A DNA stretch of 40,347 nt from a virus. The stretch lies in the UHGV virus genome UHGV-0039399; one strand, given 5' to 3'. The notes under the pieces are model-generated. The model worked only from the letters and a program-made list of their open reading frames with translations, was not told where the DNA came from and did not search any database. Positions within the stretch are counted from its first letter, which is position 1. Each line of letters starts with the position of its first letter. Below, piece by piece: positions 6,184 to 26,711 of the stretch. The translations under genes and the position numbers were made by a program.

Positions 6184-6606
6184 TTAAAAAGGAATATCTT
6201 CGTCGAAATCCATTGGCGGTTCTTTATATCCGCCGCCATTATTCTGCTGTTTTGCAGGCACTTTCTGCTGCTGTCCTTGCTGCTGTCCTTGCTGGTTGCC
6301 AGTCATAAATTCGAACTCATTTACTGCAACTTCAACCGCAGTTCCTTTCGTGCCGTCGTTCCGGTCATATTGCCGGACATCAAGGCGACCGCTTACCACG
6401 ATTTTTCCACCCTTACGAATATGTGGCGCTAATTTTTCCGCACGCTCGCCAAATACCAGGCAAGTGATCCACATAGTCCTTTTATTATCACCGTAGCCAT
6501 TCGTTACAGCTAACGGAAAACTGCCAATCGCTTTACCGTTTTGCGTGTAGCGAACTTCCATATCGTTTCCGATATTACCGCCCAGCGTGATTAAGTTTAA
6601 ACTCAT
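6184..6606 (-). CDS. ssb: single-stranded DNA-binding protein
   Basis: OB-fold-like N-terminus, Gln/Gly-rich linker and acidic C-terminal tail DFDEDIPF typical of SSB. Confidence 0.9.
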   Translation of the reverse strand: MSLNLITLGGNIGNDMEVRYTQNGKAIGSFPLAVTNGYGDNKRTMWITCLVFGERAEKLAPHIRKGGKIVVSGRLDVRQYDRNDGTKGTAVEVAVNEFEFMTGNQQGQQQGQQQKVPAKQQNNGGGYKEPPMDFDEDIPF

Positions 6607-7247
6607 TGATTATTACCCCCGTTAAGCTCATTTAAGCGCAAGTCATAAACATCTTTTGCTTTCTGTTGATGTTCTGAATCTTTAGGCAGTAGCTTCCAGC
6701 ACTTCCCGAATATCTCGCGCAACTTGTTAGCGTCCGGCGCTTTCGCTGCCGCATCACAGAAACGCGCTAACACTTCATCAGGATTTGGCGGCGCTTTCTG
6801 CTGTCGCGGCTGTTGTTTTGGCGGCGCTTTCTGCTGTCGCGGCTGTTGATTTGTCTGTTTCGCATAAGCATCAGTATCAGGATCTTTTGCGTCATCAATA
6901 CAGAACAATCCGTTCAGCGCGTATTTACGAGCGTAACTTGATGTCGCGCCAGTTAACTGGCTTGCGTCCATGCCCTTCTTGCTTTCTTCTTCCCTGGCGT
7001 AAGCCGTCACAGCAATTTCATCTTCACCGTCGCTCAGTGTAGCAGTGGCTTTCACATAATAGCGATTGCCGATCAGGATGATCTCATCGCTAACAGTCAG
7101 CGTTATATTTTGAAGTAGTGGCTTAACCGCCTCCAAAATATCCTCAGCAGATCTGTAATTGTAACCACCGAAATTATTGCGCTGATTTTTCGGCGCGTTC
7201 AACGTTTGTTGAATCGTCCACAGCTTTTTGTGTAACTCTGTTTTCAC
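6603..7247 (-). CDS. erf: Erf-family single-strand annealing recombinase
   Basis: Close match to my recollection of P22 Erf (LNAPKNQ, YRSAEDILEAVKPLL, RYYVKATAT, GATSSYARKY, IDDAKD); start refined to GTG with GAAGGAG RBS. Confidence 0.9.
   Translation of the reverse strand: MKTELHKKLWTIQQTLNAPKNQRNNFGGYNYRSAEDILEAVKPLLQNITLTVSDEIILIGNRYYVKATATLSDGEDEIAVTAYAREEESKKGMDASQLTGATSSYARKYALNGLFCIDDAKDPDTDAYAKQTNQQPRQQKAPPKQQPRQQKAPPNPDEVLARFCDAAAKAPDANKLREIFGKCWKLLPKDSEHQQKAKDVYDLRLNELNGGNNQ
6785..6850. repeat. 33-bp tandem duplication (2 copies) inside erf
   Basis: ttggcggcgctttctgctgtcgcggctgttg repeated in tandem; in-frame, encodes the QQPRQQKAPPK repeat in the Erf linker. Confidence 0.7.
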
Positions 7248-7366
7248 CCTTTGATCTCCTTCGCTGTTAACACTATGTACAAGGCTTTGTTTGCGGCGCT
7301 CCACATTTCGGCATCGTGAAGCATTTCCGCTACCGCAAGTTTGAATTGAAGCGCCTTAATAACCAT
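7244..7366 (-). CDS. small protein (40 aa) upstream of erf
   Basis: Manually found ORF with GGAGGTG RBS; its stop overlaps the erf GTG start. Confidence 0.35.
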   Translation of the reverse strand: MVIKALQFKLAVAEMLHDAEMWSAANKALYIVLTAKEIKG

Positions 7367-7972: not shown

Positions 7973-8620
7973 TTATGGCAGGTTTACGATCTTCGCATCA
8001 ACAACCACGCCAATGATTTTTGATTCTGGATTCATAGGGATCGGCGGGTACAACGGATTAAGTGAACGCAAAAGTTTTCTGCCTCCATCAGTAATCAACT
8101 GTTTAAACGTCGGTGTCTGCCCTTCCTCCAGTTGGGCTATAACCAGTTTGCCATCAATAGCTGGCGCGTGCGGGTCAACAAGTATCATAGTACCCGCCGG
8201 GATGCTTAACCCCTGAGGCGCGTTCATTGATTCACCTTTGGCAACCAGCCAGTAACTATCATCTGAACAAATAACGCTAGTCGTAACGTGTGGTAATGTT
8301 GATCGGCGTGTGTCTTCCATATTGTTTGCTGCGTCCTTCCAGTCAACAACCGGGTAACTTCCTAAATCACGAGGTGGCGCTCCCGGCAACGTGTTAGAAA
8401 CAGAATCATCAATGACCATACCATCATGAGTAACAGTGAATTGCCGACGCCCAAGCGCCCGCATGATCCGCGCAATATCTTCAAGATTCGGCTCACGGCG
8501 ACCGTTCAGCCAGTGAGAAAGGCCACCTTTAGTTATCCCCATAAGATCAGCCAATGAATCCTGGCTCATGCCCTGCGCCCGCATGAGTTGTTTTGCTAAG
8601 TCATACCATTTTGTTTTCAT
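7973..8620 (-). CDS. cI: CI-type repressor (HTH plus LexA-like S24 peptidase domain)
   Basis: N-terminal XRE-type HTH (QDSLADLMGITKGGLSHWLNG) and C-terminal autocleavage domain with the GESM serine motif; divergent from the rightward operon. Confidence 0.9.
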   Translation of the reverse strand: MKTKWYDLAKQLMRAQGMSQDSLADLMGITKGGLSHWLNGRREPNLEDIARIMRALGRRQFTVTHDGMVIDDSVSNTLPGAPPRDLGSYPVVDWKDAANNMEDTRRSTLPHVTTSVICSDDSYWLVAKGESMNAPQGLSIPAGTMILVDPHAPAIDGKLVIAQLEEGQTPTFKQLITDGGRKLLRSLNPLYPPIPMNPESKIIGVVVDAKIVNLP

Positions 8621-8925
8621 ATCGCTACCCTATAACCTAAAAAATTTTGATGCAAGTCACAAAATGTATTTTTCAATCCTTGATCTATTAACAACATTCT
8701 GTAAACTTGCTGACAAGGTAAGGCCATAGTTGCAAGGATGCAAGGAAAAAGATAAGGGAAAGCACAAAAGGCAAAAGCCTTAAGCTCTTTAAAAATCCGG
8801 TGGCGCTGCAATGCGTAAAACAAATATCACGCAACGGCGGGATCTGTTAAGCGGTCAATCACTGCTATCTAATGCCAATGGGATGCCCGCCCGCGCGTTC
8901 ACTCTAACCATAGGAGAAAACACGA
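8621..8925. promoter_or_regulatory. immunity-region divergent promoter/operator region (PRM/PR-equivalent)
   Basis: 305-bp AT-rich intergenic region between cI and the first rightward gene; contains TGCAAGG direct repeats and an ACAAAATGT motif also present near PL. Confidence 0.5.
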
Positions 8926-9179
8926 TGAGTATGAACATGATTAGCAAAGCATGGAACGTAAAACTTAACAGCCCGATCCAAAAACTTGTCTTAATTGCGT
9001 TTGCAGAAAAGGCAGACAACAAGGGCCGCGCACACGCTTCACGCGAAGAGATTGCAAAAGTCTGCGAACTGCCACTGCATACTACTGTTGACGCATTAAA
9101 CTCATTAATCCGCAAAGGATTCATTAAACGCGCTGACGAATACGGCGAAATTTATGACATTGCTTTGCCTGAGGAATGA
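8926..9179 (+). CDS. winged-helix DNA-binding protein (first gene of the rightward operon, Cro position)
   Basis: AGGAG RBS 9 nt upstream; predicted wH/HTH segment; the longer 8811 start has a weaker RBS. Confidence 0.5.
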
Positions 9180-9182
9180 TCT

Positions 9183-10100
9183 ATGAAGTGGTTTAAACAT
9201 GATAGCGATGCGAACCGCGACGAAAAACTTCAAAACGTTTTGTTAGATTATGGCCTGGAAGGTTATGGGCTTTATTGGTATTGCCTCGAACTGATAACTT
9301 ATGACGTAGATCAGCACAACCTCAATTTTGACCTTCGACATGATGCCAGAATCATCGCGCGTAACGTCGGATCGACTGAGAAGCGCATTGAGGAAATGAT
9401 GAAATACTTTATCGAAATTGGTCTATTCGAATGTTCTCAGGGGCATATAACTTGTTTAAAGTTATTAAAAAGGCTGGACCAATCAATGACATCTAAAAGC
9501 GCATATAGGGCAGCCATAAACACAGCGAAGGAGCAATTAAAATTAGAAAAGCTAATCAATACAGCGCCAAAGGGTCATGATGAGGTCATGATTGGGTCAT
9601 GTCAGGGTCATGATAGGGTCATGACCGGGTCATGGCAGGGTCATGAATTAGAATTAGAAGAAGAAAGAGAAAAAGAAAAAGAAAAAAACATATTGATCAG
9701 CGATGCTGATCGAAACGCTTTCGAAGACATCTTCTGGCCTGCATACCCACGGAAGGTTAACAAGCAGGCAGCGTTTAAGTCATTCAAAACGAGAGCAAAG
9801 GAATGGGTGAAGGAAAACAAATCAACTGTCCAGGCTTTCGCGGAAATGCTGGTTAAAGATCTTGAGCGCAGGAAAGGTTGGTTCGGTAGCGACAAGTTGC
9901 ACCCAACAACATATCTGAACCAGAAACGCTGGCTTGATGAACCGGAAGGAGGTAACAACCAGGATAGCAATGTTGAAGGTAAGAAGCTGCGCCGCATCGT
10001 CGGGAAGAGTGGTCAGATTTACGAACGAATGTTAACGGATGATGAGTATAACGAATATCTCCGACGGTTCGCGGAGTGGCAGAAATCACAACACGCTTGA
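9183..10100 (+). CDS. replication initiator / replisome organizer (O-like)
   Basis: N-terminal MKWFKHDSDANRDEKL...YGLYWYC domain typical of phage replisome organizers; iteron array embedded in the coding sequence as in lambda O. Confidence 0.75.
   Translation: MKWFKHDSDANRDEKLQNVLLDYGLEGYGLYWYCLELITYDVDQHNLNFDLRHDARIIARNVGSTEKRIEEMMKYFIEIGLFECSQGHITCLKLLKRLDQSMTSKSAYRAAINTAKEQLKLEKLINTAPKGHDEVMIGSCQGHDRVMTGSWQGHELELEEEREKEKEKNILISDADRNAFEDIFWPAYPRKVNKQAAFKSFKTRAKEWVKENKSTVQAFAEMLVKDLERRKGWFGSDKLHPTTYLNQKRWLDEPEGGNNQDSNVEGKKLRRIVGKSGQIYERMLTDDEYNEYLRRFAEWQKSQHA
9573..9649 (+). repeat. seven direct GGTCATG iterons at exact 11-bp phasing
   Basis: GGTCATG starts at 9573, 9584, 9595, 9606, 9617, 9628 and 9639. 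Confidence 0.75.
9573..9713. promoter_or_regulatory. candidate origin of replication (iterons, purine/A-rich tract, GATC-containing palindrome)
   Basis: Iterons are followed by an A/G-rich stretch (9646-9690) and the inverted repeat GATCAGC-gat-GCTGATC with two Dam sites; this mirrors ori-lambda inside gene O. Confidence 0.65.
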
Positions 10101-10233
10101 GTATTCATTAGTGTCAGAAATCGAAAATAACCAACCAAACAAGCCCACCAGCGAGCTAAATTGCATTAGGCGCTACACTTGCATACCTTTAGCTGTTTAG
10201 CTCGTTAGAGAGCGTTTTAGAGAGGATCTAAAA

Positions 10234-10335: not shown

Positions 10336-10467
10336 CCTTCATATCAGTCTGTAAATCAAAAATTAGCCACCTGAGAGAGTCTATAACGCAATAAGACACT
10401 GCAACCTGTGCAAACGGGTGTCGCGGTGGGATTTTTGCGTTGTAGCGCGTTTTACGGAGAAATTACA

Positions 10468-11238
10468 ATGTCTGAATTAATGGTGTTTGATAACGTAAAA
10501 ATGACAAGCGCTGAAATTGCTGAGTTGGTCGGAAGTCGCCACGCAGATATTAAACGAAGCATTGAGAGGCTTGTTAAAAATGGCGTTATCCGGCAACCGC
10601 CAACGGCGTTTCTCGAAAGAATCAATAACTTAGGGTTTAAGGTAAAAGATGACGTCTACGTCTTTGAAGGGGAGCAAGGCAAGAGAGATAGTATCATTGT
10701 TGTAGCTCAAAACTGCCCTGAATTTACGGCACGACTTGTTGATCGCTGGCAGGAACTTGAAAACACAGTCCGGCAAAATGCTGTTCCAAATTACGGTAAC
10801 ACGCAGATCGGTAATGTTCTTGCTTTCGCAGAAACAGCAAGTCGAATGCTGAATATGAGCAATTCGGGTAAGCTGGGGATGCTACAGAAAATCGAAAAGG
10901 AATATAATATTCCTCCTATCCTTCCACATTATGCTATCGACGCTCCTGTTGATGCGGTAGACGGATCAAGTCGTGTGACCAAATCACTGACAGCATTGTT
11001 GGAAGAAAATAACGTTGGCATGACTGCGCGGGAGGTTTACCCAATCCTTGAGCGCAAGGGCATTGTTGAACGCAAGTATCGTAAAGCACGATGCGGCGAA
11101 AAAAGATTCTGGAATGTAACTGTGCATGGCCTGCGATACGGCAAAAACATAACCAACCCGTCTAACCAGAGAGAAACGCAGCCACACTTCTATGAATCAA
11201 GATTTAAAGAGTTGTTGAATATTATTTTTTCTGAATGA
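10468..11238 (+). CDS. Rha-family phage regulatory protein
   Basis: N-terminus MTSAEIAELVGSRHADIKRSIERL matches the Rha N-terminal DNA-binding signature; GGAG RBS. Confidence 0.7.
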   Translation: MSELMVFDNVKMTSAEIAELVGSRHADIKRSIERLVKNGVIRQPPTAFLERINNLGFKVKDDVYVFEGEQGKRDSIIVVAQNCPEFTARLVDRWQELENTVRQNAVPNYGNTQIGNVLAFAETASRMLNMSNSGKLGMLQKIEKEYNIPPILPHYAIDAPVDAVDGSSRVTKSLTALLEENNVGMTAREVYPILERKGIVERKYRKARCGEKRFWNVTVHGLRYGKNITNPSNQRETQPHFYESRFKELLNIIFSE

Positions 11239-11271: not shown

Positions 11272-12390
11272 ATGTGTCAAAGAAAAATCTCGGATGAGGA
11301 ACTTATCACTGAATATAACAATGGTTTAACGTACAAACAGATCGCTGAAAAGTATGGCATGTCAAAACGCAATGTCGAACGCCTGGGCGCAAAACTGGCG
11401 AAGCGCGGTTTAATATCAACGCGTCGCGCTCCTGGTTTTGGTGTTAATGGCGAGTCGTTGCTAGTCGATAAAAACGGCAATGTTATCATGCGCTGGATTA
11501 AAACAGCCCGTGACCGCGAAGAAATGGAACAGCTAATGGAAGCGGCCCGCGACGCTTTAACGGATGAAATACCACGCGCGGAGGCTGTGCCAGTGCCGGA
11601 AATTGATTTTCAAAAAAGCCTGGCCCTTTATCCGGTGTTTGACCTGCACATCGGGGCGCTTGCTCACAAAGCGGAATGTGGCGAGAGCTACGACACTGGG
11701 ATCGCTGAACGCGTGTTAAATGACTTCTTTGACTACGCCGTTGGCGCTGCCCCTATGAGTGAAAAAGCGGTTCTGCTTCTCGGTGGCGACCTGCTTCACA
11801 CTGACGGATTGTTGCCAGTGACGCCATCAAGCAATCACGTTCTTGATTGCGATAGTCGCTATGCAAAACTTGTTTATGTGGCGATCCGGGCGGTACGTCG
11901 TGCGGTCGGGAAAATGTTGCTGAACCACAAGGATATTGAAATTCAGGTATTATCAGGCAACCACGACCAGTCTGGTATGATTTGGCTACGTGCTGCGCTG
12001 GCGGCTTTTTACGAAGATGAACCACGCGTGACTGTTGATGTGTCACCTACTATCGTACACCACACGCAGTACGGGAAAACATTCCTTGCTTACCACCACG
12101 GGCACACTATCAAAAAACCGGAAAACCTATTGGCTGCTTGCGTGGCTGACTGGCGCGAAGATTTCGGCAAGTCTGCGGCTGTTTACGCCCACTGCGGGCA
12201 CTGGCATCATCAAAGGATGATTGAATCATCGTTGGGCGTTGTTGAGTATCACGGCACGTTAGCTGGCAAGGATGCGTATTCGACTAATGGAGGATGGCGG
12301 TCGCGTCGCCTGGCAGCGGTTATTATTTACAGCCCGGATCATGGTGAAATCGGGCGCTTTGTTTATTACCCTGAATTTTCCATTTTGTAA
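11272..12390 (+). CDS. HTH domain fused to a calcineurin-like metallophosphoesterase
   Basis: N-terminal HTH (LTYKQIAEKYGMSKRNVERL), then phosphoesterase motifs in order: DLH, GGDLLH, SGNHD, HHGH, GHWHH; GGAGG RBS. Confidence 0.6.
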   Translation: MCQRKISDEELITEYNNGLTYKQIAEKYGMSKRNVERLGAKLAKRGLISTRRAPGFGVNGESLLVDKNGNVIMRWIKTARDREEMEQLMEAARDALTDEIPRAEAVPVPEIDFQKSLALYPVFDLHIGALAHKAECGESYDTGIAERVLNDFFDYAVGAAPMSEKAVLLLGGDLLHTDGLLPVTPSSNHVLDCDSRYAKLVYVAIRAVRRAVGKMLLNHKDIEIQVLSGNHDQSGMIWLRAALAAFYEDEPRVTVDVSPTIVHHTQYGKTFLAYHHGHTIKKPENLLAACVADWREDFGKSAAVYAHCGHWHHQRMIESSLGVVEYHGTLAGKDAYSTNGGWRSRRLAAVIIYSPDHGEIGRFVYYPEFSIL

Positions 12391-12428
12391 ACTAAATGCA
12401 ATGCCGTAATGGCTCTGGAGGTGAATAT

Positions 12429-14312
12429 ATGACACCGAAAGAATTGGATTCGTTATTGTGGCAGCAAGTTGAGAAGGTGGCCCGTCACCTCCTGCCTAAC
12501 GGCAAGAAGGATGGGCATGAATGGGTAGCCGGAAATACTAACGGCGACAGCGGTAAGAGTCTGAAGATCAACCTCAACGGGAAAAACAAATGGGCTGATT
12601 TCGCTGAGGGTGAATCGGGCGACCTGCTTGATTTATGGATGTTGTGCCGTGGTATTCCACTCCACATTGCAATGAAGGAAGCTAAAGCATTTTTAGGCAT
12701 CAAGGACGATGATCATCATTTTGTGTCAAAGCAGGATAAGAAGTTTAAAAAGCCTGATCGGGAACACATAAGAAAATACTTATCGAAAGGTGAGCGCCAC
12801 ATTGAGTACCTGGAAGGCCGGGGAATATCAAGGGAGATCATCAAAAAATACGAGGTAACACTGGGTAAGGTTTTTGATGGCAAATCTAATCTTGATGCCC
12901 TGGTTTTTCCTTACAAACGTGACGGTGAACTACTGCAAGTTAAACGAATCGGGATTGATCGCCCTAACGGTAAAAAAATAATAATGGCAGAGGCAGAATG
13001 CGAACCTTGCTTGTATGGATGGAACGGACTGGATGATGGTGTGAGGGCTGTCGTTCTTTGTGAGGGTGAAATTGACTGCCTGTCTTACGCTCAGTATGGG
13101 ATTTCAGCGCTATCAGTGCCGTTTGGTGGAGGTAAGGGAGCAAAACAACAATGGATCGAATTCGAATATCATAATCTCGACAGGTTCGAGGAAATTTATA
13201 TTTCAATGGATAACGATGACGTTGGCAGGGAAGCGACAAGGGAAATAGCTACAAGGCTGGGTGAGCACCGCTGCCGAATGGTTAAGCTACCACGCAAGGA
13301 TATTAACGAATGCCTTACTGATGGCATCCCTGAGGATGAAATATGGAATTGCATCGCTTCGGCTGAATACTTTGATCCTGATGAGTTGTATTCTGCAAGG
13401 GAGTTTTATCAGGACACGATAAACGCTTTCTACGGAAAAGAGCAATACCTTTTTACTTCTCCGTGGGCAAAACTTAATTACAACTTCAAGTTTCGCGGCT
13501 CTGAGTTAACAATACTGAGCGGCTACAACGGCAGCGGTAAGACTGAGATCGTGGGCCATATGGTATTGGAAGCAATAAAACAGGGAGTCAAAACTTGCGT
13601 CGCATCACTTGAGATAAAGCCTGGCATATTGCTTAAGCGCTTAACCAGGCAAGCGACATGCTGCAACCAACCGCCAATGATTGAGATTGATTCAGCATTT
13701 AAACTTTATGATGACCGATTATGGATATTCGGTCTGACAGGGACGGCAAAGGCTGAAAGGCTGCTTGAAATTTTCGAATATGCGAGCAGAAGATACGGCG
13801 TTAAGCTGTTTGTTATTGACAGCCTGATGAAATGCGGGATTGGCGAGGATGACTATAACGGGCAAAAGGCATTCATCGATGCCATTTGTGACTTCAAAAA
13901 CAAAACTGGCGTTCATGTAATTCTCGTGACCCACTCAAGGAAGGGTATCTCTGAAGATACGCCGTCGGGGAAAATGGATGTGAAGGGTAGCGGCTCTGTA
14001 ACCGACCTCACCGATAACCTGTTAATCATCTGGAGGAACAAGAAACGCGAAAGATTGATGGCTGAACTGGCTGACTCGATGATGCCTGCTGATGCAGATC
14101 AACAAAAAATATTGAATGAGGCTAGTTCTTACCTGATTATGGAAAAACAACGAAACGGAGAAGGCTGGGAGGGCAAAATACCTTTAAGCCTTGATCTTAA
14201 TTCGCATCAATTCCTTGAACCAGACACGCCGTCGCCATACAGCTACATAGCCAACATGACAAAAGCAGATTATGACGAAGTGTGGATCAATGAAAACGTA
14301 ACCCTATCGTAA
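12429..14312 (+). CDS. bifunctional DNA primase / replicative helicase (TOPRIM plus DnaB/RecA-like ATPase)
   Basis: TOPRIM motifs (VVLCEGEIDCLS, SMDNDDVGRE) followed by Walker A GYNGSGKTE and Walker B-like VIDSL; GGAGGTG RBS. Confidence 0.85.
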   Translation: MTPKELDSLLWQQVEKVARHLLPNGKKDGHEWVAGNTNGDSGKSLKINLNGKNKWADFAEGESGDLLDLWMLCRGIPLHIAMKEAKAFLGIKDDDHHFVSKQDKKFKKPDREHIRKYLSKGERHIEYLEGRGISREIIKKYEVTLGKVFDGKSNLDALVFPYKRDGELLQVKRIGIDRPNGKKIIMAEAECEPCLYGWNGLDDGVRAVVLCEGEIDCLSYAQYGISALSVPFGGGKGAKQQWIEFEYHNLDRFEEIYISMDNDDVGREATREIATRLGEHRCRMVKLPRKDINECLTDGIPEDEIWNCIASAEYFDPDELYSAREFYQDTINAFYGKEQYLFTSPWAKLNYNFKFRGSELTILSGYNGSGKTEIVGHMVLEAIKQGVKTCVASLEIKPGILLKRLTRQATCCNQPPMIEIDSAFKLYDDRLWIFGLTGTAKAERLLEIFEYASRRYGVKLFVIDSLMKCGIGEDDYNGQKAFIDAICDFKNKTGVHVILVTHSRKGISEDTPSGKMDVKGSGSVTDLTDNLLIIWRNKKRERLMAELADSMMPADADQQKILNEASSYLIMEKQRNGEGWEGKIPLSLDLNSHQFLEPDTPSPYSYIANMTKADYDEVWINENVTLS

Positions 14313-16636: not shown

Positions 16637-16854
16637 TGGATAAGATCGGCGCAATACTCATTAATCGCGAGCAAGTGCAAAAAATGTTGGGCGGGCTTAG
16701 TAAGTCGGCGTTTTTTAAACTGGTTAAGAAGTGGAAGGATTCAGGTACTCCATTCCCTGAACCCGTTAAGGGGATGCCAGCATTAAAGCGCGGCGGTTAT
16801 CTTTACCGTTATCAGGATGTTATTTCATTTTGTAAATCAATGGGCTTCATGTAG
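16636..16854 (+). CDS. excisionase-like / AlpA-type small DNA-binding protein
   Basis: 72-aa protein with the excisionase-type HTH pattern (INREQVQKMLGGLSKSAFFKLVKK); adjacent to int, 3' ends overlap by 43 bp. Confidence 0.6.
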   Translation: MDKIGAILINREQVQKMLGGLSKSAFFKLVKKWKDSGTPFPEPVKGMPALKRGGYLYRYQDVISFCKSMGFM

Positions 16855-18011
16855 TAATCAGCCAGTTTATTCATCGCCTCGATTTGCTCCCTCACATAGT
16901 CATACTGATCGTATATAGCAAACATCCCCGCCAGCTTATGACCCAAAACCTTTTCCGCGACATGAGGCGCAACGCCAAGCGCTGAAAGGTTTGTCCTCAC
17001 GGTGCGGCGTAGATCGTGACACGACCACGGCTCGCCGCCCATCCTCATCATTAAATCCCTCGCTGCTGTTTTCGGCACGCTTCTGTCCACCGCAACATCC
17101 CTTCCAGAAAGCACAGGAACGAAGACAAAATCAAAGCTATGTAGATCCATAGCCTCACGCAATAAAGCCACGCTAACGTTCGATAAACCGCGTTTAAACT
17201 CATTCCTGTTCTTACTCAATGCACCAGGAACAGTCCACACGCAGCTATCAAGATCGAAATGCTCGCGCCTTGCGTTTGTCAGTTCGCTTGTCCTGCACCC
17301 GGTAAATATAATCAGCTTCATCAATATCTGGTTCAGTCGCGCCATTTTTGAACTATCTACAAGGCCGATTAGACGGTGGATCTCCTGTATTGACAAAACT
17401 CGCTTGCCTTGCGCTGGTTTTTTGCCTACGTCTTTAACGCACAGCAATGATATATCGTCACGATCCACGCGGCGGCGGCGAATGGCGTATTTTATTACGG
17501 CCTTCATTCTGTTGAGAACTATGCCTGCCTGAACTGGTGCGCCACCATTAGCTACCTTCCTAAAAACTCCCTCCCACATCATAGCGTCCATATCATCTAC
17601 AATATAGCTACCGTATGGTTTTATGACGTGCTTACCTAACATGGACTCAACCTGCTTATAGTTGACCATGTTCCTTGCCTGCGGCGATTCCATGTACTCC
17701 CTTACAATATCCTCAACCGTCGCCCGTGTCGTAACTCTGGAAAGGTGCATTCTTTTTGCTACCGATGGATCTCGTCCTGAGTTTAGTAATTCTTTATGCT
17801 CCGCCACCGCCGCCCGCGCTTCTTTGAGCGTTATTTCTCCGTATGTGCCAATCTTCATCCGTCGAGGCTTGCCGTTGAATCGGTAGCGATACTGGAAAGA
17901 TATAACGCCTCGTGGGCTTATCCTGGCAGACAATCCGCCAGCGTCCGGTAATTCCTCCGGGCCGTCGTACGGCTTGCCGTGAATGTTTCGTAATTTGGTA
18001 TCTGTAAGCAT
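16812..18011 (-). CDS. int: tyrosine site-specific integrase
   Basis: 399 aa; N-terminal arm-binding-type domain; C-terminal catalytic region with HDLRRT...LGH and conserved Tyr context. Confidence 0.95.
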   Translation of the reverse strand: MLTDTKLRNIHGKPYDGPEELPDAGGLSARISPRGVISFQYRYRFNGKPRRMKIGTYGEITLKEARAAVAEHKELLNSGRDPSVAKRMHLSRVTTRATVEDIVREYMESPQARNMVNYKQVESMLGKHVIKPYGSYIVDDMDAMMWEGVFRKVANGGAPVQAGIVLNRMKAVIKYAIRRRRVDRDDISLLCVKDVGKKPAQGKRVLSIQEIHRLIGLVDSSKMARLNQILMKLIIFTGCRTSELTNARREHFDLDSCVWTVPGALSKNRNEFKRGLSNVSVALLREAMDLHSFDFVFVPVLSGRDVAVDRSVPKTAARDLMMRMGGEPWSCHDLRRTVRTNLSALGVAPHVAEKVLGHKLAGMFAIYDQYDYVREQIEAMNKLADYYMKPIDLQNEITS

Positions 18012-21304: not shown

Positions 21305-21335
21305 AAACCCCGCGCGAAGCGGGGTTGTTTTTTTA
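21305..21335. terminator. bidirectional rho-independent terminator (lipoprotein gene / J)
   Basis: CCCCGC-gcgaa-GCGGGG hairpin followed by a T-run on the plus strand and an A-run/U-tract on the minus strand. Confidence 0.7.
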
Positions 21336-24300
21336 TCCTGAGAATGAACCGGAACCGCGCGACACAATGACTGTCGGCGATTGTATATAAGCCCCCTTGC
21401 TATTTTGAGCGGATACCTTAATGGTAACTGTAACGCTCTTGCTAGTTACTGCTGATGAATGCATAACAAGGCGCTCAGTGCCATCTACCATCGAGGCTTT
21501 TGATGAACCGCCGATCGTTATTGTGCAACCACCATAACCTTTAACGTTAGCCATAACACAAACATGTCTGCTATGTGCAGCGTCTGACGTGTCGGTGTAT
21601 GTGATTGTTTTTACTAGCTCACCATCCCTTGTTCTGCTAACGTCAGATCCCGTATACATGTTCGCAACGTCACCGATAAAGGTCTTCGCCTCAAGTGACC
21701 CTGAGAACTTACCGCTGCTGGCATACACGGCCCCCCTTACCGTTACGTTGTTAAGTTCCGCGCTACCGTTTTTGTTGATCATCCAGCCGGAAGACCCTGC
21801 TGCGTAGTTGGTTGACTGTATCTGCTGTGCAATTTTAGCAGTAGTAATGGCTGCATCTGCAATCTTAGCCGTTCCTATTGATGCGTTTTTAATAAACGCT
21901 TCTTTTACATACATTGCGCCGTTAGACACATAGAAAGGCGCTGTATATGTGCCGTTTGCTGCGGTCATTAACACGAAGCGGTCAACGAGGAAAATACACT
22001 GCGATTGAACGTTAGTACCGTTGCCAGTTAAACCAAGTGACATACCTGTTGCGTATTTCATGCCGTTGTTGTCGGTTGCCAGTTTGATGGAGTACGTCGC
22101 ATCGACATTACCCTTGAAGTCGGTTAACGCTTTCGACGTCGTTTGTATCGCTGTTGTGTTCCCGTTAACGGTCACTGTTAGCTGATCGATTTTGTTTGAT
22201 AATGCCTCGTCAGCCGTTGCCATAGCCTGTGACCATTCTGTAATGCTTGAGTTTACAGATTCGAAAGACGCTGAGATCTGGCCGAATTTTTCCGCGCTTG
22301 ATGCCTCATGCGTAGAAAGCGCCGTTGATACCTCAGACACTTTCGAGTTAATCGTACTGGTAAGCGATGAGTTAAGACTATTTATCGCGTCAGTGCGTGC
22401 CTTCGTTTCGTCTGCAATGGCCTTGTCAATACGAGTCACGTTGCTTGTAACCTTGCCATCAAGTGTTGAAATTGACGCATTCACGCCACTGATGGCTTGT
22501 GCTCTGGCACTGGCCTCGTCAGCAATTGCCTGGTCCAGTCTGCTAACTTCGGATTCAGTGTTGCTTTCAAGCGTGTTAATGCTTGCGTTCACGCCACTGA
22601 TTGCCTCGCTGCGTGCGTTTGTCTCGTCAGCGATAGCCTTGTCGAGACGGGAAACGCTGGCGTCGGTTTTCTTGTCTAGATCCGTGATCGATGCTTTTAC
22701 CACGCCAATTGCTTCGGCTGTAGCCTTTTTCTCTTCAGCGATAACACTGTCAATACGATCAATCTGCGCGTTTGTTTCCTTGCGACCTTTCTTGTACTGG
22801 GCCGTAAGGGTAACGCGCGTGTTGGTCTGAGCGATTGAGTTATTAATCAGCGCAATCGAAGCGTTTTGCAGGCTTGCTTTTGTCTGATTTATATCATCGC
22901 TGTTTTTGTCAACGCTATTTTCAATGCTGCCGATCTCCGCGTTAATGCCTGAGATTGCTTCAGCTCTGGCGCTTGATTCGTCTGCAATAGCCTGATCCAA
23001 ACGTTTAACGCTGGCGTTTGTGCTGTTTTCAAGCGTTGTCAAATCAGCATTAACGTCTGTTATTGCTGCGCTTCTTGCCTGCGTCTCGTCAGCGATAGCC
23101 TTGTCGAGACGGGAAACGCTGGCGTCAGTTTTGCTTTCAAGGTTGCTTATTGATGCTTTAACATCGCTCACAGCCTGGGCGCGGGCGCTGGCCTCGTCGG
23201 CAATCGACTGATCAAGGCGTTTAACTTCTGAATTGGTGTTACCTTCAAGTGTGTCAATACTTGCTTTGACTCCGCTGATTGCGTCAGTGCGTGCCTTCGT
23301 TTCGTCGGCGATAGCTTTATCTATGCGCGTTACATTGCTTGTTACCTTGCTATCAAGCGTTGAAATTGACGCATTCACGCCACTGATGGCTTCAGTTCTT
23401 GCGCTGGTTTCGTCTGCTATTGCTTGATCCAGGCGTTTCACGCTGGCGTCAGTTTTCTTGTCTAGCGATGAGACACTCGCGTTAACGTCACTAACTGCCT
23501 GTGTGCGGGCGTTCGTTTCGTCTGCGATGGCCTGATCAAGTCTGTTGACGCTGGCATCGGTTTTCTTGTCTAGATTGCTTATTGATGCGTTAACGCCGTT
23601 GATTGCTTCAGCGCGGGCGCTTGCCTCGTCAGCCACTGCGCGTTCCACGCTGGAAATCTGACCCTTAAGGTTAGAATCCATCGTGTTCATTTCTGCAGTG
23701 ATGGTTTCCAGTGATTCCGCTGTAGCCTTTTTCTCTTCAGCAATAACGTTGTCAATGCGGTCAATTTCAGCCTTCGTCTCTGTCCTGCCTTTCTTGTACT
23801 GAGCAGTGAGAGTAACCCGCGTGTTGGTCTGAGCAAGGGAGTTGTTGATAAGTGCCAACGACGCGTTTTGCAGGCTTGCTTTTGCTTGCGCCAGTTCACT
23901 GCCAACTTTTTCGCTAGATACCTCCAGAGAATCTATTCTTGCCTCATGATGTCCAATATCGTCGGCGTTTTCTCCAACCTTTTTGTAAAGATCTTCCGTC
24001 TCTTTTTTCAGTGTGTCCGTGTCAGCTTTTATGGCCCCTGTTTCTGTGATTAGGCCGTCCGTATCAGTCCTCAATTCGTCAGTGATGTTTATCAGGTTGT
24101 CAGTTTCAACCCTCAAATCGTCAGTGATGTTTGTCAGGTTGTCAGTTGCAGTTTTGAGGTTGTCAGTAGCGTTTTTAAGGTCATTTGTAGCGCTTTCGAT
24201 AAGGTCGGCACGGTCGCCAAGATCTTTAATGTCGCCGATCATGCCCTTGAACTGTTCTGACTCCATGACGTCCTTCATCACGTAGTCGCTGATTTCGTCG

Positions 24301-26711
24301 AAGTTTTCAGTCGGTTTTCCTGATGCCTCAACAAAGTCTGACACACCAAAGGCATTACGCGTGCGCACATAAACGTAATATTTATGGCCCGTGTTCATGC
24401 CGCCAAAAGTCCATTGGTAGCCGCGCCCGGTGAATTGCGCCAGCATGGTTACTTTTGATGGGTCTGTGATCTGGTTTTCACCTGAGTAATAAAACTCGTA
24501 TGCTGTATCAGTGGTCAGGGTTGTTTTGCTGATCGGATATACCGTTGCCTGGAAGACACCGGGAACCCAATTGACTCCAATCGGGGCTGCTGGCGCACCA
24601 ATAACCAGGTCAACAATACTTTCAGCACCCTTCATGCCAGTGTCATTACGCCCGCGAATACCAAGCGTGTAGCTGCCAGCATCCAGGCCATAAAAATCAT
24701 AGCGGTAATTCGTGGTTTCATAAGTTGCCACAATGCGGCCTTCGGTGTTATATACGCGTATTTCAAAGGTCAGGCGATGCGTTGTCGTCTGTGTTTCCCA
24801 TGTTGCGCGGCACTGGACTGTCTCAGAACCAACGTTTAACACCTTCAGATTTTCAATGTTCGGCACGCGGAAGTGATTAAGCGTGTCGTTGTTTACCTCG
24901 AAGATTGCGCCTTCATCAACTACAGCCTGTTTGTGCGGATCGTGCTGTGCAGCCTCAATGGTGTACACGCTGTTATTTTCGGTTTCCGCTACGCTGGTAA
25001 TTCGGCACAGAACAGGTTTTGCTGATTCAGTCGATACAGCAAACACGGTTCCGTTACGAATCCATGCTGGCGCTGACGCAAGGGTAATATTGTTTCCGTT
25101 AACCCCAGTGATCTGATGTTTTTTAAACTTGCCGTCGCTATCCAGTAAGCTGATAGTGTCGCCAGCCGCCACCAGATCAGAATCAACCTTGTCTACAGTT
25201 ATCACTTTCCCGTTATTCGCTACGATGCGACCGCCTAAACGAGCGGCTGCGCGGTTATTGTCGAGTATCTCGATAATATCCCCTGGGGTGAAGTGAATTG
25301 CGTCACGGGCCATTTTAAACGTGAATTTTGAGGGTTCGCGTTTTGCTGTTTCTATCAGCCATTTGCCAGCGCGGTACGCCTGCCCGCGTGACGTGCAACC
25401 GAAAGCCTCCAACGTGGTTTCGTTGTAACCATCGCGGGCGATCAGTTCGTCATCTGCCACGTATTCTTTTGATTGTTCCCAACCGTTTTCAGGGTCAGTC
25501 CATGACACGATAACGGCGTTGTAAGATTCTGCGCGAGCGATACTTGAACGAGTGAACGCGCCATCAACGACGTTTGCATTTGTGATAGTGGCAATTGGAT
25601 CTTGCGGTGCATCAATCATCACCGTAAGGCGCTGCCCGTCCCATAACGCGATACCACGGAACATGCCTGCAATGTTATCCAGCAAGTCGCGGGCGCTCAT
25701 TTGCTCCGTGATGTAAGCGTTAAGCGTCATGCGTGGTTCAAGGCCGCCGTAACCGTCGTTTACCAACTGGTCGCAGTATTGAGAAAGCGTATACAGTGCG
25801 CCGTCATCAACGTCGATGTAACCAGCGTGGCGGGCAAGCCCGAAGCGTTCATTTTTAACCAGATACCGGAAAAGCCACGCAGGGTTGTTGGTGTATGCCT
25901 TTTTGAAGCCACCAAGCCATAAGCCTGAATACGTGCGCGTTTCAGGGTCGTAGTTATCAGGCACATCAACAATCAGACCGCGCATGTGATAGGTGCGTGT
26001 CGGGGTATCAGTATACTGATCGTGGTCAATTACCGCGCCTGCTACAGCGGTGTGAGGATAAGATAAATTATCGTCGATTATCTCGCTGTAACTGCCCCAT
26101 CTGGTGTCATTGCGAAGTAGATCGCTTTTGCTGTCTGGCGTTACGCGACGAACGCGAATATCAAACGGTTTTTCATCCGGCGCCTGGATGATATGCGCTT
26201 CCATGTACTCGCCGCTTTGTTTACCAGGGCCAATTGTAATGCCTTTAACCAGTGACCACGATGTTGAGGATGAAGGCTTAACGTCAACCGCCAGCGTAAC
26301 CGATGTGTTGTATTGATTGCCCTTATCATCTGACTGAACCAAAGCATCAACGCCGAGATTCAGCCTTACGCGGTTAACGTTTGGATCTGAAACGGTTCGG
26401 ATTATTGGCGTATCGTGAGTTACTTTTGCGTTAACAATAACGGTTGATTCAATGGCGTTGAATCCGTTGATTGGTGACTGGTCAGCCGTACCATTACGCC
26501 ACGCCACGCTAACGCCAGGGACTGATGTACCTCCGTTGGCGTCAGTGATTGGGCTGTCATTAAGCATAACGCTGTTTAATGGCGCTTTCTGGTTTACAGG
26601 TCCGTAGATTGGGCCTTCGCTGAGAATGTCCAAAACGCGATAAAACTGTTTATGAAACAGGTTATCGTTTAATAATGTTGGTGTTTTGGCTTTGCCGCCG
26701 CCGCTACTCAT
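21333..26711 (-). CDS. J: central tail fiber / host specificity protein J with expanded coiled-coil stalk
   Basis: 1792 aa; N-terminal region and C-terminal domain align with my recollection of lambda gpJ; a roughly 660-aa repetitive coiled-coil insertion lies between them. Confidence 0.9.
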   Translation of the reverse strand: MSSGGGKAKTPTLLNDNLFHKQFYRVLDILSEGPIYGPVNQKAPLNSVMLNDSPITDANGGTSVPGVSVAWRNGTADQSPINGFNAIESTVIVNAKVTHDTPIIRTVSDPNVNRVRLNLGVDALVQSDDKGNQYNTSVTLAVDVKPSSSTSWSLVKGITIGPGKQSGEYMEAHIIQAPDEKPFDIRVRRVTPDSKSDLLRNDTRWGSYSEIIDDNLSYPHTAVAGAVIDHDQYTDTPTRTYHMRGLIVDVPDNYDPETRTYSGLWLGGFKKAYTNNPAWLFRYLVKNERFGLARHAGYIDVDDGALYTLSQYCDQLVNDGYGGLEPRMTLNAYITEQMSARDLLDNIAGMFRGIALWDGQRLTVMIDAPQDPIATITNANVVDGAFTRSSIARAESYNAVIVSWTDPENGWEQSKEYVADDELIARDGYNETTLEAFGCTSRGQAYRAGKWLIETAKREPSKFTFKMARDAIHFTPGDIIEILDNNRAAARLGGRIVANNGKVITVDKVDSDLVAAGDTISLLDSDGKFKKHQITGVNGNNITLASAPAWIRNGTVFAVSTESAKPVLCRITSVAETENNSVYTIEAAQHDPHKQAVVDEGAIFEVNNDTLNHFRVPNIENLKVLNVGSETVQCRATWETQTTTHRLTFEIRVYNTEGRIVATYETTNYRYDFYGLDAGSYTLGIRGRNDTGMKGAESIVDLVIGAPAAPIGVNWVPGVFQATVYPISKTTLTTDTAYEFYYSGENQITDPSKVTMLAQFTGRGYQWTFGGMNTGHKYYVYVRTRNAFGVSDFVEASGKPTENFDEISDYVMKDVMESEQFKGMIGDIKDLGDRADLIESATNDLKNATDNLKTATDNLTNITDDLRVETDNLINITDELRTDTDGLITETGAIKADTDTLKKETEDLYKKVGENADDIGHHEARIDSLEVSSEKVGSELAQAKASLQNASLALINNSLAQTNTRVTLTAQYKKGRTETKAEIDRIDNVIAEEKKATAESLETITAEMNTMDSNLKGQISSVERAVADEASARAEAINGVNASISNLDKKTDASVNRLDQAIADETNARTQAVSDVNASVSSLDKKTDASVKRLDQAIADETSARTEAISGVNASISTLDSKVTSNVTRIDKAIADETKARTDAISGVKASIDTLEGNTNSEVKRLDQSIADEASARAQAVSDVKASISNLESKTDASVSRLDKAIADETQARSAAITDVNADLTTLENSTNASVKRLDQAIADESSARAEAISGINAEIGSIENSVDKNSDDINQTKASLQNASIALINNSIAQTNTRVTLTAQYKKGRKETNAQIDRIDSVIAEEKKATAEAIGVVKASITDLDKKTDASVSRLDKAIADETNARSEAISGVNASINTLESNTESEVSRLDQAIADEASARAQAISGVNASISTLDGKVTSNVTRIDKAIADETKARTDAINSLNSSLTSTINSKVSEVSTALSTHEASSAEKFGQISASFESVNSSITEWSQAMATADEALSNKIDQLTVTVNGNTTAIQTTSKALTDFKGNVDATYSIKLATDNNGMKYATGMSLGLTGNGTNVQSQCIFLVDRFVLMTAANGTYTAPFYVSNGAMYVKEAFIKNASIGTAKIADAAITTAKIAQQIQSTNYAAGSSGWMINKNGSAELNNVTVRGAVYASSGKFSGSLEAKTFIGDVANMYTGSDVSRTRDGELVKTITYTDTSDAAHSRHVCVMANVKGYGGCTITIGGSSKASMVDGTERLVMHSSAVTSKSVTVTIKVSAQNSKGAYIQSPTVIVSRGSGSFSG
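22190..24200. repeat. in-frame tandem repeats within J (84-bp/28-aa units, acidic heptads, and a duplicated block about 1 kb apart)
   Basis: Repeated protein unit RLDQAIADETxARxEAISGVNASISxLDxKTDASV about 12 times; the anchor KASLQNAS(L/I)ALINNS(L/I)AQTNTRVTLTAQYKKGR occurs twice (DNA near 22880 and 23880). Confidence 0.8.

Follow-up and report, generated by a model that had tools for sequence, protein, structure and literature searches.

A putative lambda-style replication origin, built of seven iterons at an 11-bp step, inside a Lin1244_N initiator gene of an mEpimmI-group coliphage

That a phage replication origin can lie inside the gene for its own initiator is textbook knowledge from lambda and SPP1. 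In ori-lambda, which we read side by side with the locus described here, the coding strand of the O linker carries four 18-bp iterons (nt 349–433 of the 900-nt O gene), next CACAAAAGACACTATTACAAAAGAAAAAAGAAAAGATTATT, and after it the inverted repeat GTCAGAG...CTCTGAC. In SPP1, oriL is situated within gene 38, where AB boxes bound by G38P adjoin an AT-rich DNA-unwinding element (DUE) and the helicase is phage-encoded (PMC5737612). Iteron number is known to differ between related phages: Stx phages have two more iterons than lambda (six versus four) and 13 extra residues in O (PMC7466680). Here we describe a 40,347-bp stretch of viral DNA, UHGV virus genome UHGV-0039399 (‘the window’, to which all coordinates refer), in which a gene that we designate the initiator gene carries seven copies of GGTCATG, at an exact 11-bp step, in the part that encodes its inter-domain linker. 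We have good confidence that this array region is the replication origin of the phage, probably bound by the N-terminal domain (N-domain) of the gene’s own product, i.e., a lambda-style arrangement with a different binding module; an origin of the theta type, contained in the stretch of the initiator gene that encodes the linker, appears to be the best explanation of the features set out below. The gain over the textbook principle is in breadth, and in a new binding module with short, 11-bp-phased sites.

The copies of GGTCATG on the plus strand start at 9573, 9584, 9595, 9606, 9617, 9628 and 9639, and Tandem Repeats Finder (TRF) returns a period of 11 bp (6.7 copies) as well as a period of 33 bp (2.3 copies, 88% match); the seven copies at an exact 11-bp step over 9573–9645, which the original prediction had proposed from the letters alone, are therefore borne out both by motif positions and by TRF. 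Ten matches to this word occur in the window: seven form the array, two are isolated, and one, on the complement at 9620–9626, overlaps the array because copy 5 is a 10-bp palindrome, GGTCATGACC. Seven of the nine plus-strand or independent copies thus fall within 73 bp. Six of the copies have a G on the 5′ side of the core and one has an A; the sequence GGTCATGA, in which the palindrome TCATGA is contained, is shared by five. The array spans nt 391–463 of the 918-nt gene (residues 131–155 of 305), and the peptide encoded across this region is KGHDEVMIGSCQGHDRVMTGSWQGHELELEEEREKEKEKN, which agrees with the GHD/GHE repeat and charged linker that had been ascribed to open reading frame (ORF) 9183–10100. 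Bearing in mind that the initiator gene shows no nucleotide difference among three independent metagenome assemblies, the seven-copy array is no assembly artefact. A further statement, that every site lies on one helical face, has to be softened: the 11-bp spacing is exact, but because this step exceeds the ~10.5 bp of a helical turn, simple arithmetic gives a drift of ~17° per copy and ~100° across the array, so that a single face is only approximated. We scanned the early region for comparable repeat arrays and found no other one. DnaA boxes (TTWTNCACA) are absent from the early region, the only two matches being at 35.8 and 40.2 kb; this lack of nearby DnaA boxes is neutral for a lambda-like origin.

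The array is followed directly by the purine/A-rich region that had also been claimed: the tract at 9646–9689 is 80% AT, 89% purine and 70% A, and it is the top purine 44-mer of the window. Its stability (−47.0 kcal/mol, against a mean of −59.8 and a standard deviation of 4.2) makes it the fourth least stable 44-bp locus, with 0.16% of 44-mers less stable. Hence, two traits of a lambda-type origin are directly visible at this locus: several direct repeats in the linker-coding part of an initiator ORF, and an easily melted, AT-rich tract adjoining them.

Another observation, drawn from sequence comparisons, is that the repeat is selected as DNA and not as peptide. GGTCATG is read in three frames, as G-H-D/E, V-M and G-S-C/W; the 11-bp period is not a multiple of three, and therefore the same 7-mer encodes different peptides and cannot be a peptide repeat. 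Among 29 distinct close relatives, none of nine third-codon positions inside the cores is variable, as against 69 of 130 in nt 1–390 (Fisher test, p = 0.003); no variation occurs at the 21 positions of cores 1, 2 and 4, and 7 of 16 spacer positions are variable. Four iterons occupy the same place in phages mEp515 and MagusPhagus, 25 E. coli prophages and ~35 IMG/VR contigs, the third iteron of these relatives often being degenerate (GGTCAGG or GGTCAAG); complete E. coli genomes contain this four-iteron form only, joined to another C-terminal domain (C-domain). The comparison of iteron number across relatives, which had been put forward as a check, therefore yields four copies in close relatives versus seven in the window, by way of a 33-bp (11-residue) tandem duplication of the relatives’ three-copy unit. 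The two duplicated units differ at none of 21 core positions and at 5 of 12 spacer positions (p = 0.003), and the peptide has diverged between them from EVMIGSC to RVMTGSW. By analogy, the difference in iteron number between Stx phages and lambda offers a direct precedent for this change from four to seven copies, with its 11 additional residues.

It is against these data that a purely protein-level explanation has to be judged, namely that the repeat is merely a peptide repeat or a flexible charged linker (GHD/VM/GS, then E/K-rich) with no function as DNA. The region does encode a linker that is probably disordered: residues 131–150 have low confidence (predicted local distance difference test, pLDDT, 40–42) in a structure model that we obtained from AlphaFold2 with a 48-sequence alignment. 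Furthermore, K/E-rich linkers are necessarily purine-rich. Nevertheless, the 11-bp period maintains the 7-mer across three frames and different peptides, synonymous positions do not vary within the cores although spacers and encoded residues do, and other members of the protein family show an equivalent DNA arrangement with other motifs (see below), so that we consider the chance of a peptide-only explanation to be close to negligible.

Natural mosaics among the relatives provide a second line of evidence for the origin. Homology with mEp515, MagusPhagus and E. coli prophages runs from cI, by way of the small helix-turn-helix (HTH) gene and the N-domain, to the repeats and the A-tract; it breaks at 9690–9693 and resumes at 10115–10124, past the stop codon. 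These relatives have a different C-domain, preceded by ATACAC-n3-GTGTAT, and the N-domain is ≥98% identical in relatives that keep the same repeats. Phage mEp021 has retained mEp515’s C-domain and inverted repeat, and its N-domain is swapped for one of the HTH_36 type; at the array position it carries four unrelated copies of ~23 bp, GGTAGTGGCAnAnAGCAACC, and no repeats of this type occur in the window. The natural recombination junctions are thus at the right end of the purine tract, 9690–9693, and they therefore define two units, N-domain plus repeats plus A-tract on the one side and inverted repeat plus C-domain on the other, which have recombined at that point. On this sequence evidence the repeats are inherited with the N-domain and separately from the C-domain, as they would be in a lambda-type origin. 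A further replacement concerns the helicase gene: where the relatives have a DnaB-like helicase, the window has a primase-helicase, with no detectable similarity to the MagusPhagus helicase, and homology breaks at 12392–12412. The genes between the replaced C-domain and the helicase are 84–93% identical (93% for the exonuclease-like gene). This joint replacement of initiator C-domain and helicase suggests a coupled exchange of recruiter and client.

We also noted a metagenome protein (P0001, from a 46-kb contig) with the same N-domain and four repeats, in which another C-terminus is attached at the same A-tract junction. This C-terminus is a sigma-70 region-4-like HTH (Pfam PF04545), and the protein is either a natural mosaic or a chimeric assembly.

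As to the protein that would bind the iterons, the N-domain of the initiator belongs to Pfam PF14297 (Lin1244_N/DUF4373; residues 3–87, 44.1 bits versus a cut-off of 25, E = 3.5e-11), and the RefSeq annotation of the E. coli prophage homologues is likewise Lin1244_N/DUF4373. In the databases the homologues are mostly ‘hypothetical’ or ‘DUF4373’, occasionally ‘replication initiation’ by homology; PHROGs families for ‘replication initiation protein’ and ‘primosomal protein’ match both halves of the gene. In the literature searched we came across no description of an mEpimmI origin (the group to which this phage is assigned below) and no origin-binding role assigned to Lin1244_N/DUF4373. A sequence search of the PDB gave nothing relevant; the N-domain of the AlphaFold2 model is predicted to be a winged helix that resembles the winged-helix domains of ORC/Cdc6/Cdt1, the plasmid RepA_N initiator (4pta) and the N-terminal domain of DnaD.

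The gene had been called ‘O-like’, a description that fits its function and layout and does not fit its sequence family. The window protein hits PF14297 only, instead of Phage_rep_O (PF04492), which lambda O hits with E = 5.7e-36. Its C-domain is of an ‘F..FW..YP.K’ type, in place of the lambda O C-domain with a P-type loader, and there is no P gene in the window. Nor are the iterons dyad-symmetric sites of 18–19 bp: they have a 7–8-bp core and an 11-bp step, and only the hexamer TCATGA is palindromic. Other members of the Lin1244_N family possess at least three other C-domain types, lambda O’s among them.

The gene immediately upstream, which encodes a small stand-alone HTH_36 protein, supplies another candidate binder for an origin that would itself be real. 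The match of this small protein to several ‘replication initiation O-like’ PHROGs covers their first ~72 residues; the protein shows 30% identity to the N-domain of the mEp021 initiator, and, between the window and mEp021, has been swapped along with the initiator cassette (only 38% identical). However, its identity ranges from 98% down to 55% among phages in which the N-domain is ≥98% identical and the cores are invariant. Furthermore, the gene is precisely missing from locus L045, whose N-domain and five CCATG repeats are nevertheless those of L044; no HTH_36 gene lies upstream of ten diverse Lin1244_N loci, and phmmer finds a homologue in L044 only. The small protein thus dissociates from the repeats, and for this reason the Lin1244_N domain is the best candidate binder; we regard the HTH_36 protein as a very improbable one. 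A separate observation is that the small protein is hypervariable among phages that share the repressor, the initiator N-domain and the iterons; its targets may be the HTH_36-type origins of competing phages, on which it would act as a decoy or regulator.

We then have the wider Lin1244_N family, from which we assembled 48 distinct, distant genes (34–82% identity) out of IMG/VR contigs and metagenome-assembled genomes (MAGs) from many phyla. A strict array test (an exact 5-mer in at least three copies, chained at 10–12-bp steps in the linker) was passed by 16 of these 48 genes, at nt ~330–470, versus 1.0% of 1,920 control windows, and further arrays with degenerate copies are visible on reading the sequences. 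A purine-rich tract comes after the repeats in 44/48 genes; these distant tracts show a 5–6-nt beat, for example AGATAAGATTAGA, AGAACAGAACAGAATAGA and GAAGAGAAGAGAA. The repeats fall into two dialects, each of which accompanies one subtype of N-domain: (A/G)(A/G)TCATG(A) or CCATG is found with N-domains that end in ‘...RLD.SMTS...’ (43 genes versus 0 of the other class), and GTCCCGA/TCGGGAC (TCCCGA/TCGGGA) with those that end in ‘...RTDEYTQK...’ (19 genes versus 0), where classes were called by simple regular expressions and the counts are not corrected for phylogeny. Three alignment columns alone, corresponding to N61, M102 and S104 of the window protein, separate the two classes.

In two members of the family (L078 and L092, linker nt ~330–385), sites of class B alternate in orientation at the 11-bp step, as GTCCCGA/GTCGGGA/CTCCCGA/GTCGGGA. 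Unlike the head-to-tail arrays elsewhere, this pattern hints that both orientations are tolerated, or that the core is pseudo-palindromic.

Some family members occupy the slot of lambda O. In Pantoea phage PdC23 (L106), a Lin1244_N gene with four TCATG sites and a purine tract directly precedes a lambda-P homologue (Phage_lambda_P, E = 5.7e-57), and in Vibrio phage douglas 12A4 (L107) the Lin1244_N gene is followed by one for an IstB/DnaC-like ATPase. In Vibrio phage Athena1 (L108) and contig L074, Lin1244_N is fused to the C-domain of lambda O itself (36% identity over 100 residues, BLASTP E = 2e-19), and the linker of the fusion contains three 21-bp repeats with TCATG in each. PdC23, douglas 12A4 and Athena1 are all cultured phages with in-gene TCATG sites (at 10–11-bp or 21-bp steps) and a purine tract, and are ready experimental systems.

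The likeness of the window to ori-lambda therefore has several components: a putative origin in the initiator’s inter-domain linker; the same order of parts on the coding strand (repeats, a ~40-bp purine/A tract, an inverted repeat); an N-domain and iterons that form one inherited module, with the C-domain as another; an in-frame change of iteron number (four in lambda versus six in Stx phages, +13 residues; here four versus seven, +11 residues); and relatives that precede a lambda-P homologue or carry the lambda O C-domain. There are differences too. The N-domain belongs to PF14297 here and to PF04492 in lambda O; the 7–8-bp cores recur at exactly 11 bp, whereas the 18-bp dyad-symmetric sites of lambda are ~20–24 bp apart; the window has no P-type loader, its helicase being a phage primase-helicase; and its inverted repeat is of another sequence, with a 3-nt loop. 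The earlier proposal that this locus reproduces the logic of ori-lambda with different sequence is supported by each of the comparisons that we made: the side-by-side reading, DNA-level selection, co-segregation with the N-domain, family recurrence, the lambda O slot and the C-domain fusion.

Comparisons with other systems are less close. Similarly to SPP1 oriL, the proposed origin would be inside the initiator’s own gene, with repeats, an AT-rich DUE and a phage-encoded helicase; on the other hand, SPP1 has a Gram-positive host, G38P needs a separate loader, G39P, the repeats are of another type, and we detected no sequence relationship. The repeats of iteron plasmids are usually 17–22 bp long and lie outside the rep gene, often together with DnaA boxes. 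The window differs from such origins and their winged-helix Rep proteins (e.g., RepA_N, 4pta) in that its iterons are inside the gene and no DnaA boxes are near. An 11-bp step is found in the bind locus of pMV158, where direct repeats are bound cooperatively by RepB (PMC4753449), and in R1 parC, where iterons are bound cooperatively by ParR (PMC2241845). In common with the window these are short tandem sites on which many protein copies form a higher-order complex; they differ in their purposes (rolling-circle initiation and partition, respectively), in protein fold, and in that the repeats are outside the gene for the binding protein. The parC precedent raises the idea that the array could be a centromere-like partition site, to which we give scarcely any credence: a tyrosine integrase is encoded in the phage, the proteins that were scanned included none resembling ParA, ParM or ParR, and the array is inside a replication gene, beside a tract of the unwinding type.

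We hypothesize the following sequence of events at the proposed origin. Transcription of the initiator gene, and hence of the origin, would come from a divergent early region that the CI-like repressor sets; early rightward transcription would both yield the 305-residue initiator and cross the origin, as in lambda. The winged-helix Lin1244_N domains would then occupy the seven R-GGTCATG-A sites as a near-continuous, slowly spiralling array: with sites only 11 bp apart, bound domains would have to pack head-to-tail. This nucleoprotein complex would stress and open the adjacent 44-bp A/purine tract, and the C-domain would recruit the phage primase-helicase, which would unwind and prime the DNA.

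The same array could instead be bound for a regulatory purpose (autoregulation, a transcription roadblock, copy control or exclusion), with the origin elsewhere, for instance at a site of the P4 type that is recognised by the primase-helicase. It is established that the repeats of iteron replicons also act in control, the window’s primase-helicase could in principle recognise an origin itself, and the literature that we searched holds no functional data. We think this quite improbable, in view of the relatives that have the same repeats and use a plain DnaB-like helicase with no primase-helicase. Furthermore, as in ori-lambda and SPP1 oriL, an easily melted purine/A tract always accompanies the repeats, and the early region holds no other comparable array, the other two copies of GGTCATG being isolated.

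The element on the right of the tract, GATCAGC-gat-GCTGATC, is less securely part of the proposed origin. The inverted repeat with two Dam sites (GATC at 9695 and 9708, 13 bp apart) is present as had been stated, but its status as a conserved or significant component was not upheld. The window contains 27 perfect inverted repeats with 7-bp arms and 3–8-nt loops, versus 16 ± 4 in shuffles, and this one alone is not beyond chance. There are two GATC sites simply because the palindrome contains GATC, and the window as a whole is not enriched in GATC (179 observed versus 156 expected; nine pairs within 15 bp). At the same place, mEp515, MagusPhagus, mEp021 and E. coli prophages have ATACAC-n3-GTGTAT, which is free of GATC, and some relatives have no inverted repeat there at all. 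Among the distant Lin1244_N genes, an inverted repeat with arms of at least 6 bp follows the tract in 8 of 44, versus 9% in controls, which is marginal and not a family feature. We therefore rejected GATC/Dam as a general origin feature on all four grounds (unenriched GATC, an inverted repeat within chance, GATC-free relatives, marginal family enrichment); a Dam role is possible for this one variant.

Possible roles of the inverted repeat are those of an accessory site and of an antisense terminator. In the latter case, which is compatible with the origin and concerns 9695–9711 only, it would combine with a T-run on the minus strand to form an intrinsic terminator against antisense transcription into the origin and initiator gene. 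A consensus scan does report a terminator-like site on the minus strand (9711..9695; seven pairs, four of them G-C, and a loop of 3 nt, followed by AATATGTTTT and a long T/C-rich run), and the layout of an inverted repeat and then a T-rich run on the minus strand (to ~9650 in the window) is also found in mEp515-type relatives and in lambda. The T-run, however, begins 6 nt past the stem, the mEp515-type stem has just two G-C pairs, the inverted repeat is not conserved family-wide, and the scan is poorly specific (8 sites in 2 kb versus 2.5 expected), so that we view the terminator as unlikely.

Several points weigh against the origin and its wider extension. Only the 16 genes pass the strict exact-word test, and a few family members (L049 and L094–97) show no clear array. 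The co-occurrence of N-domain subtype and repeat class, as tallied above, is partly shared ancestry. A K/E/R-rich linker could by itself give rise to a purine-rich tract. Few of the 3-kb flanks extend as far as the helicase, for which reason a family-wide link of C-domain type with helicase type is no more than suggestive. The turn of GC skew in the window falls at the switch of transcription direction, i.e., in the divergent promoter region, and for that reason is uninformative on the origin. Finally, the literature search found no experiment on this phage group or on any Lin1244_N protein.

With these points in mind, we propose tentatively, and with a conviction that falls a little short of tipping the balance, a wider reading. 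Lin1244_N/DUF4373 would be a general origin-binding winged-helix module in phages and prophages across bacterial phyla, with its cognate origin in the linker of its own gene (three to seven short sites at an 11-bp step, readable in three frames, whence the peptide signature ‘SHDxVM’, and then a polypurine unwinding tract). The module would assemble as a continuous head-to-tail filament, unlike dimers on palindromic iterons; there would be at least two co-evolving dialects of protein and site, TCATG and TCCCGA; recombination at the A-tract with different helicase-recruiting C-domains would be free; and the expansion from four to seven iterons would tune origin strength or specificity. If this is true, a widespread domain of unknown function acquires one, origin recognition, and a simple sequence rule could locate origins in many uncultured phages and prophages. 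The family would also provide natural domain swaps in which origin specificity and helicase choice could be studied, one binding module being combined with at least four helicase-recruiting modules and the repeats coming in two dialects; sites as short as these, with 11-bp phasing, would imply a mode of initiator assembly unlike the lambda O-some. The mEpimmI coliphages are common in the human gut, and for them the findings mark where the origin probably lies, along with a hotspot of recombination at the A-tract.

The assignment to this group is based on nucleotide similarity and shared gene order, by which the phage is a member of the mEpimmI (mEp021-like) temperate coliphages, a group defined in PMC11893012. 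In nucleotide comparisons MagusPhagus matches with 81% coverage at 85% identity over 25 kb, and mEp phages match with 53–66% coverage at 87–93% identity; the structural half of the window is 85–93% identical to MagusPhagus and mEp phages. Table 1 lists the features of the locus and of its gene neighbourhood. A search of Rfam over 8.5–10.5 kb at E ≤ 1 matched no RNA family.

Table 1. Proposed origin, initiator gene and neighbouring genes in the window
Feature	Position	Strand	Details
ERF recombinase and SSB (binds single-stranded DNA)	6184–7304	−	Pfam/PHROGs
CI-like S24 repressor	7973–8620	−	Pfam HTH_3 and Peptidase_S24; relatives’ copies annotated cI repressor
Small stand-alone HTH_36 protein	8925–9179	+	84 residues, or 122 from ATG 8811
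Initiator gene	9183–10100	+	305 residues, 918 nt; Lin1244_N, putative origin-bearing linker, C-domain
Lin1244_N winged-helix domain, proposed origin binder	9189–9557	+	Residues 3 to ~125; Pfam and structure model
Seven iterons, R-GGTCATG-(A)	9572–9645	+	Exact 11-bp step; copies 1–3 and 4–6 are a diverged 33-bp duplication
Purine/A-rich tract, proposed DNA-unwinding element	9646–9689	+	Sequence AATTAGAATTAGAAGAAGAAAGAGAAAAAGAAAAAGAAAAAAAC; encodes ELELEEEREKEKEKN
C-terminal domain, ‘F..FW..YP.K’ type, proposed helicase-recruiting module	9690–10097	+	Replaced relative to all mEp-group relatives
Inverted repeat GATCAGC-gat-GCTGATC	9695–9711		7-bp arms; belongs to the C-domain module
Rha/Ant-like protein	10408–11238	+	Pfam/PHROGs
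Exonuclease-like protein	11272–12390	+	Pfam/PHROGs
Primase-helicase (Toprim and DnaB-like/AAA_25)	12396–14312	+	Pfam and PHROGs; proposed client of the initiator C-domain
Tyrosine integrase	16812–18011	−	Pfam/PHROGs

The neighbourhood of the initiator gene varies among these phages. The position that is held by the Rha/Ant-like gene in the window is held by a ‘zinc-ribbon domain’ gene in mEp021 and some prophages; within this gene, downstream of the initiator, mEp021 has about six tandem copies of a 183–198-bp unit (L003, 4968–6097). Between the exonuclease-like gene and the helicase, mEp515 (L001, 6853–7407) and mEp021 (L003, from 7605) have an HNH/homing-endonuclease gene that neither the window nor MagusPhagus has.

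Tandem repeats of other kinds occur elsewhere in the window. The ERF recombinase gene (6603–7304, minus strand) holds a 33-bp repeat of 2.2 copies with a 94% match at 6782–6853. In the J-like tail-tip gene (1792 residues, 21333–26711, minus strand), repeats of 42 bp (two copies, 92% match) and 21 bp at 24069–24181 have periods that are multiples of three, and so probably represent a peptide repeat.

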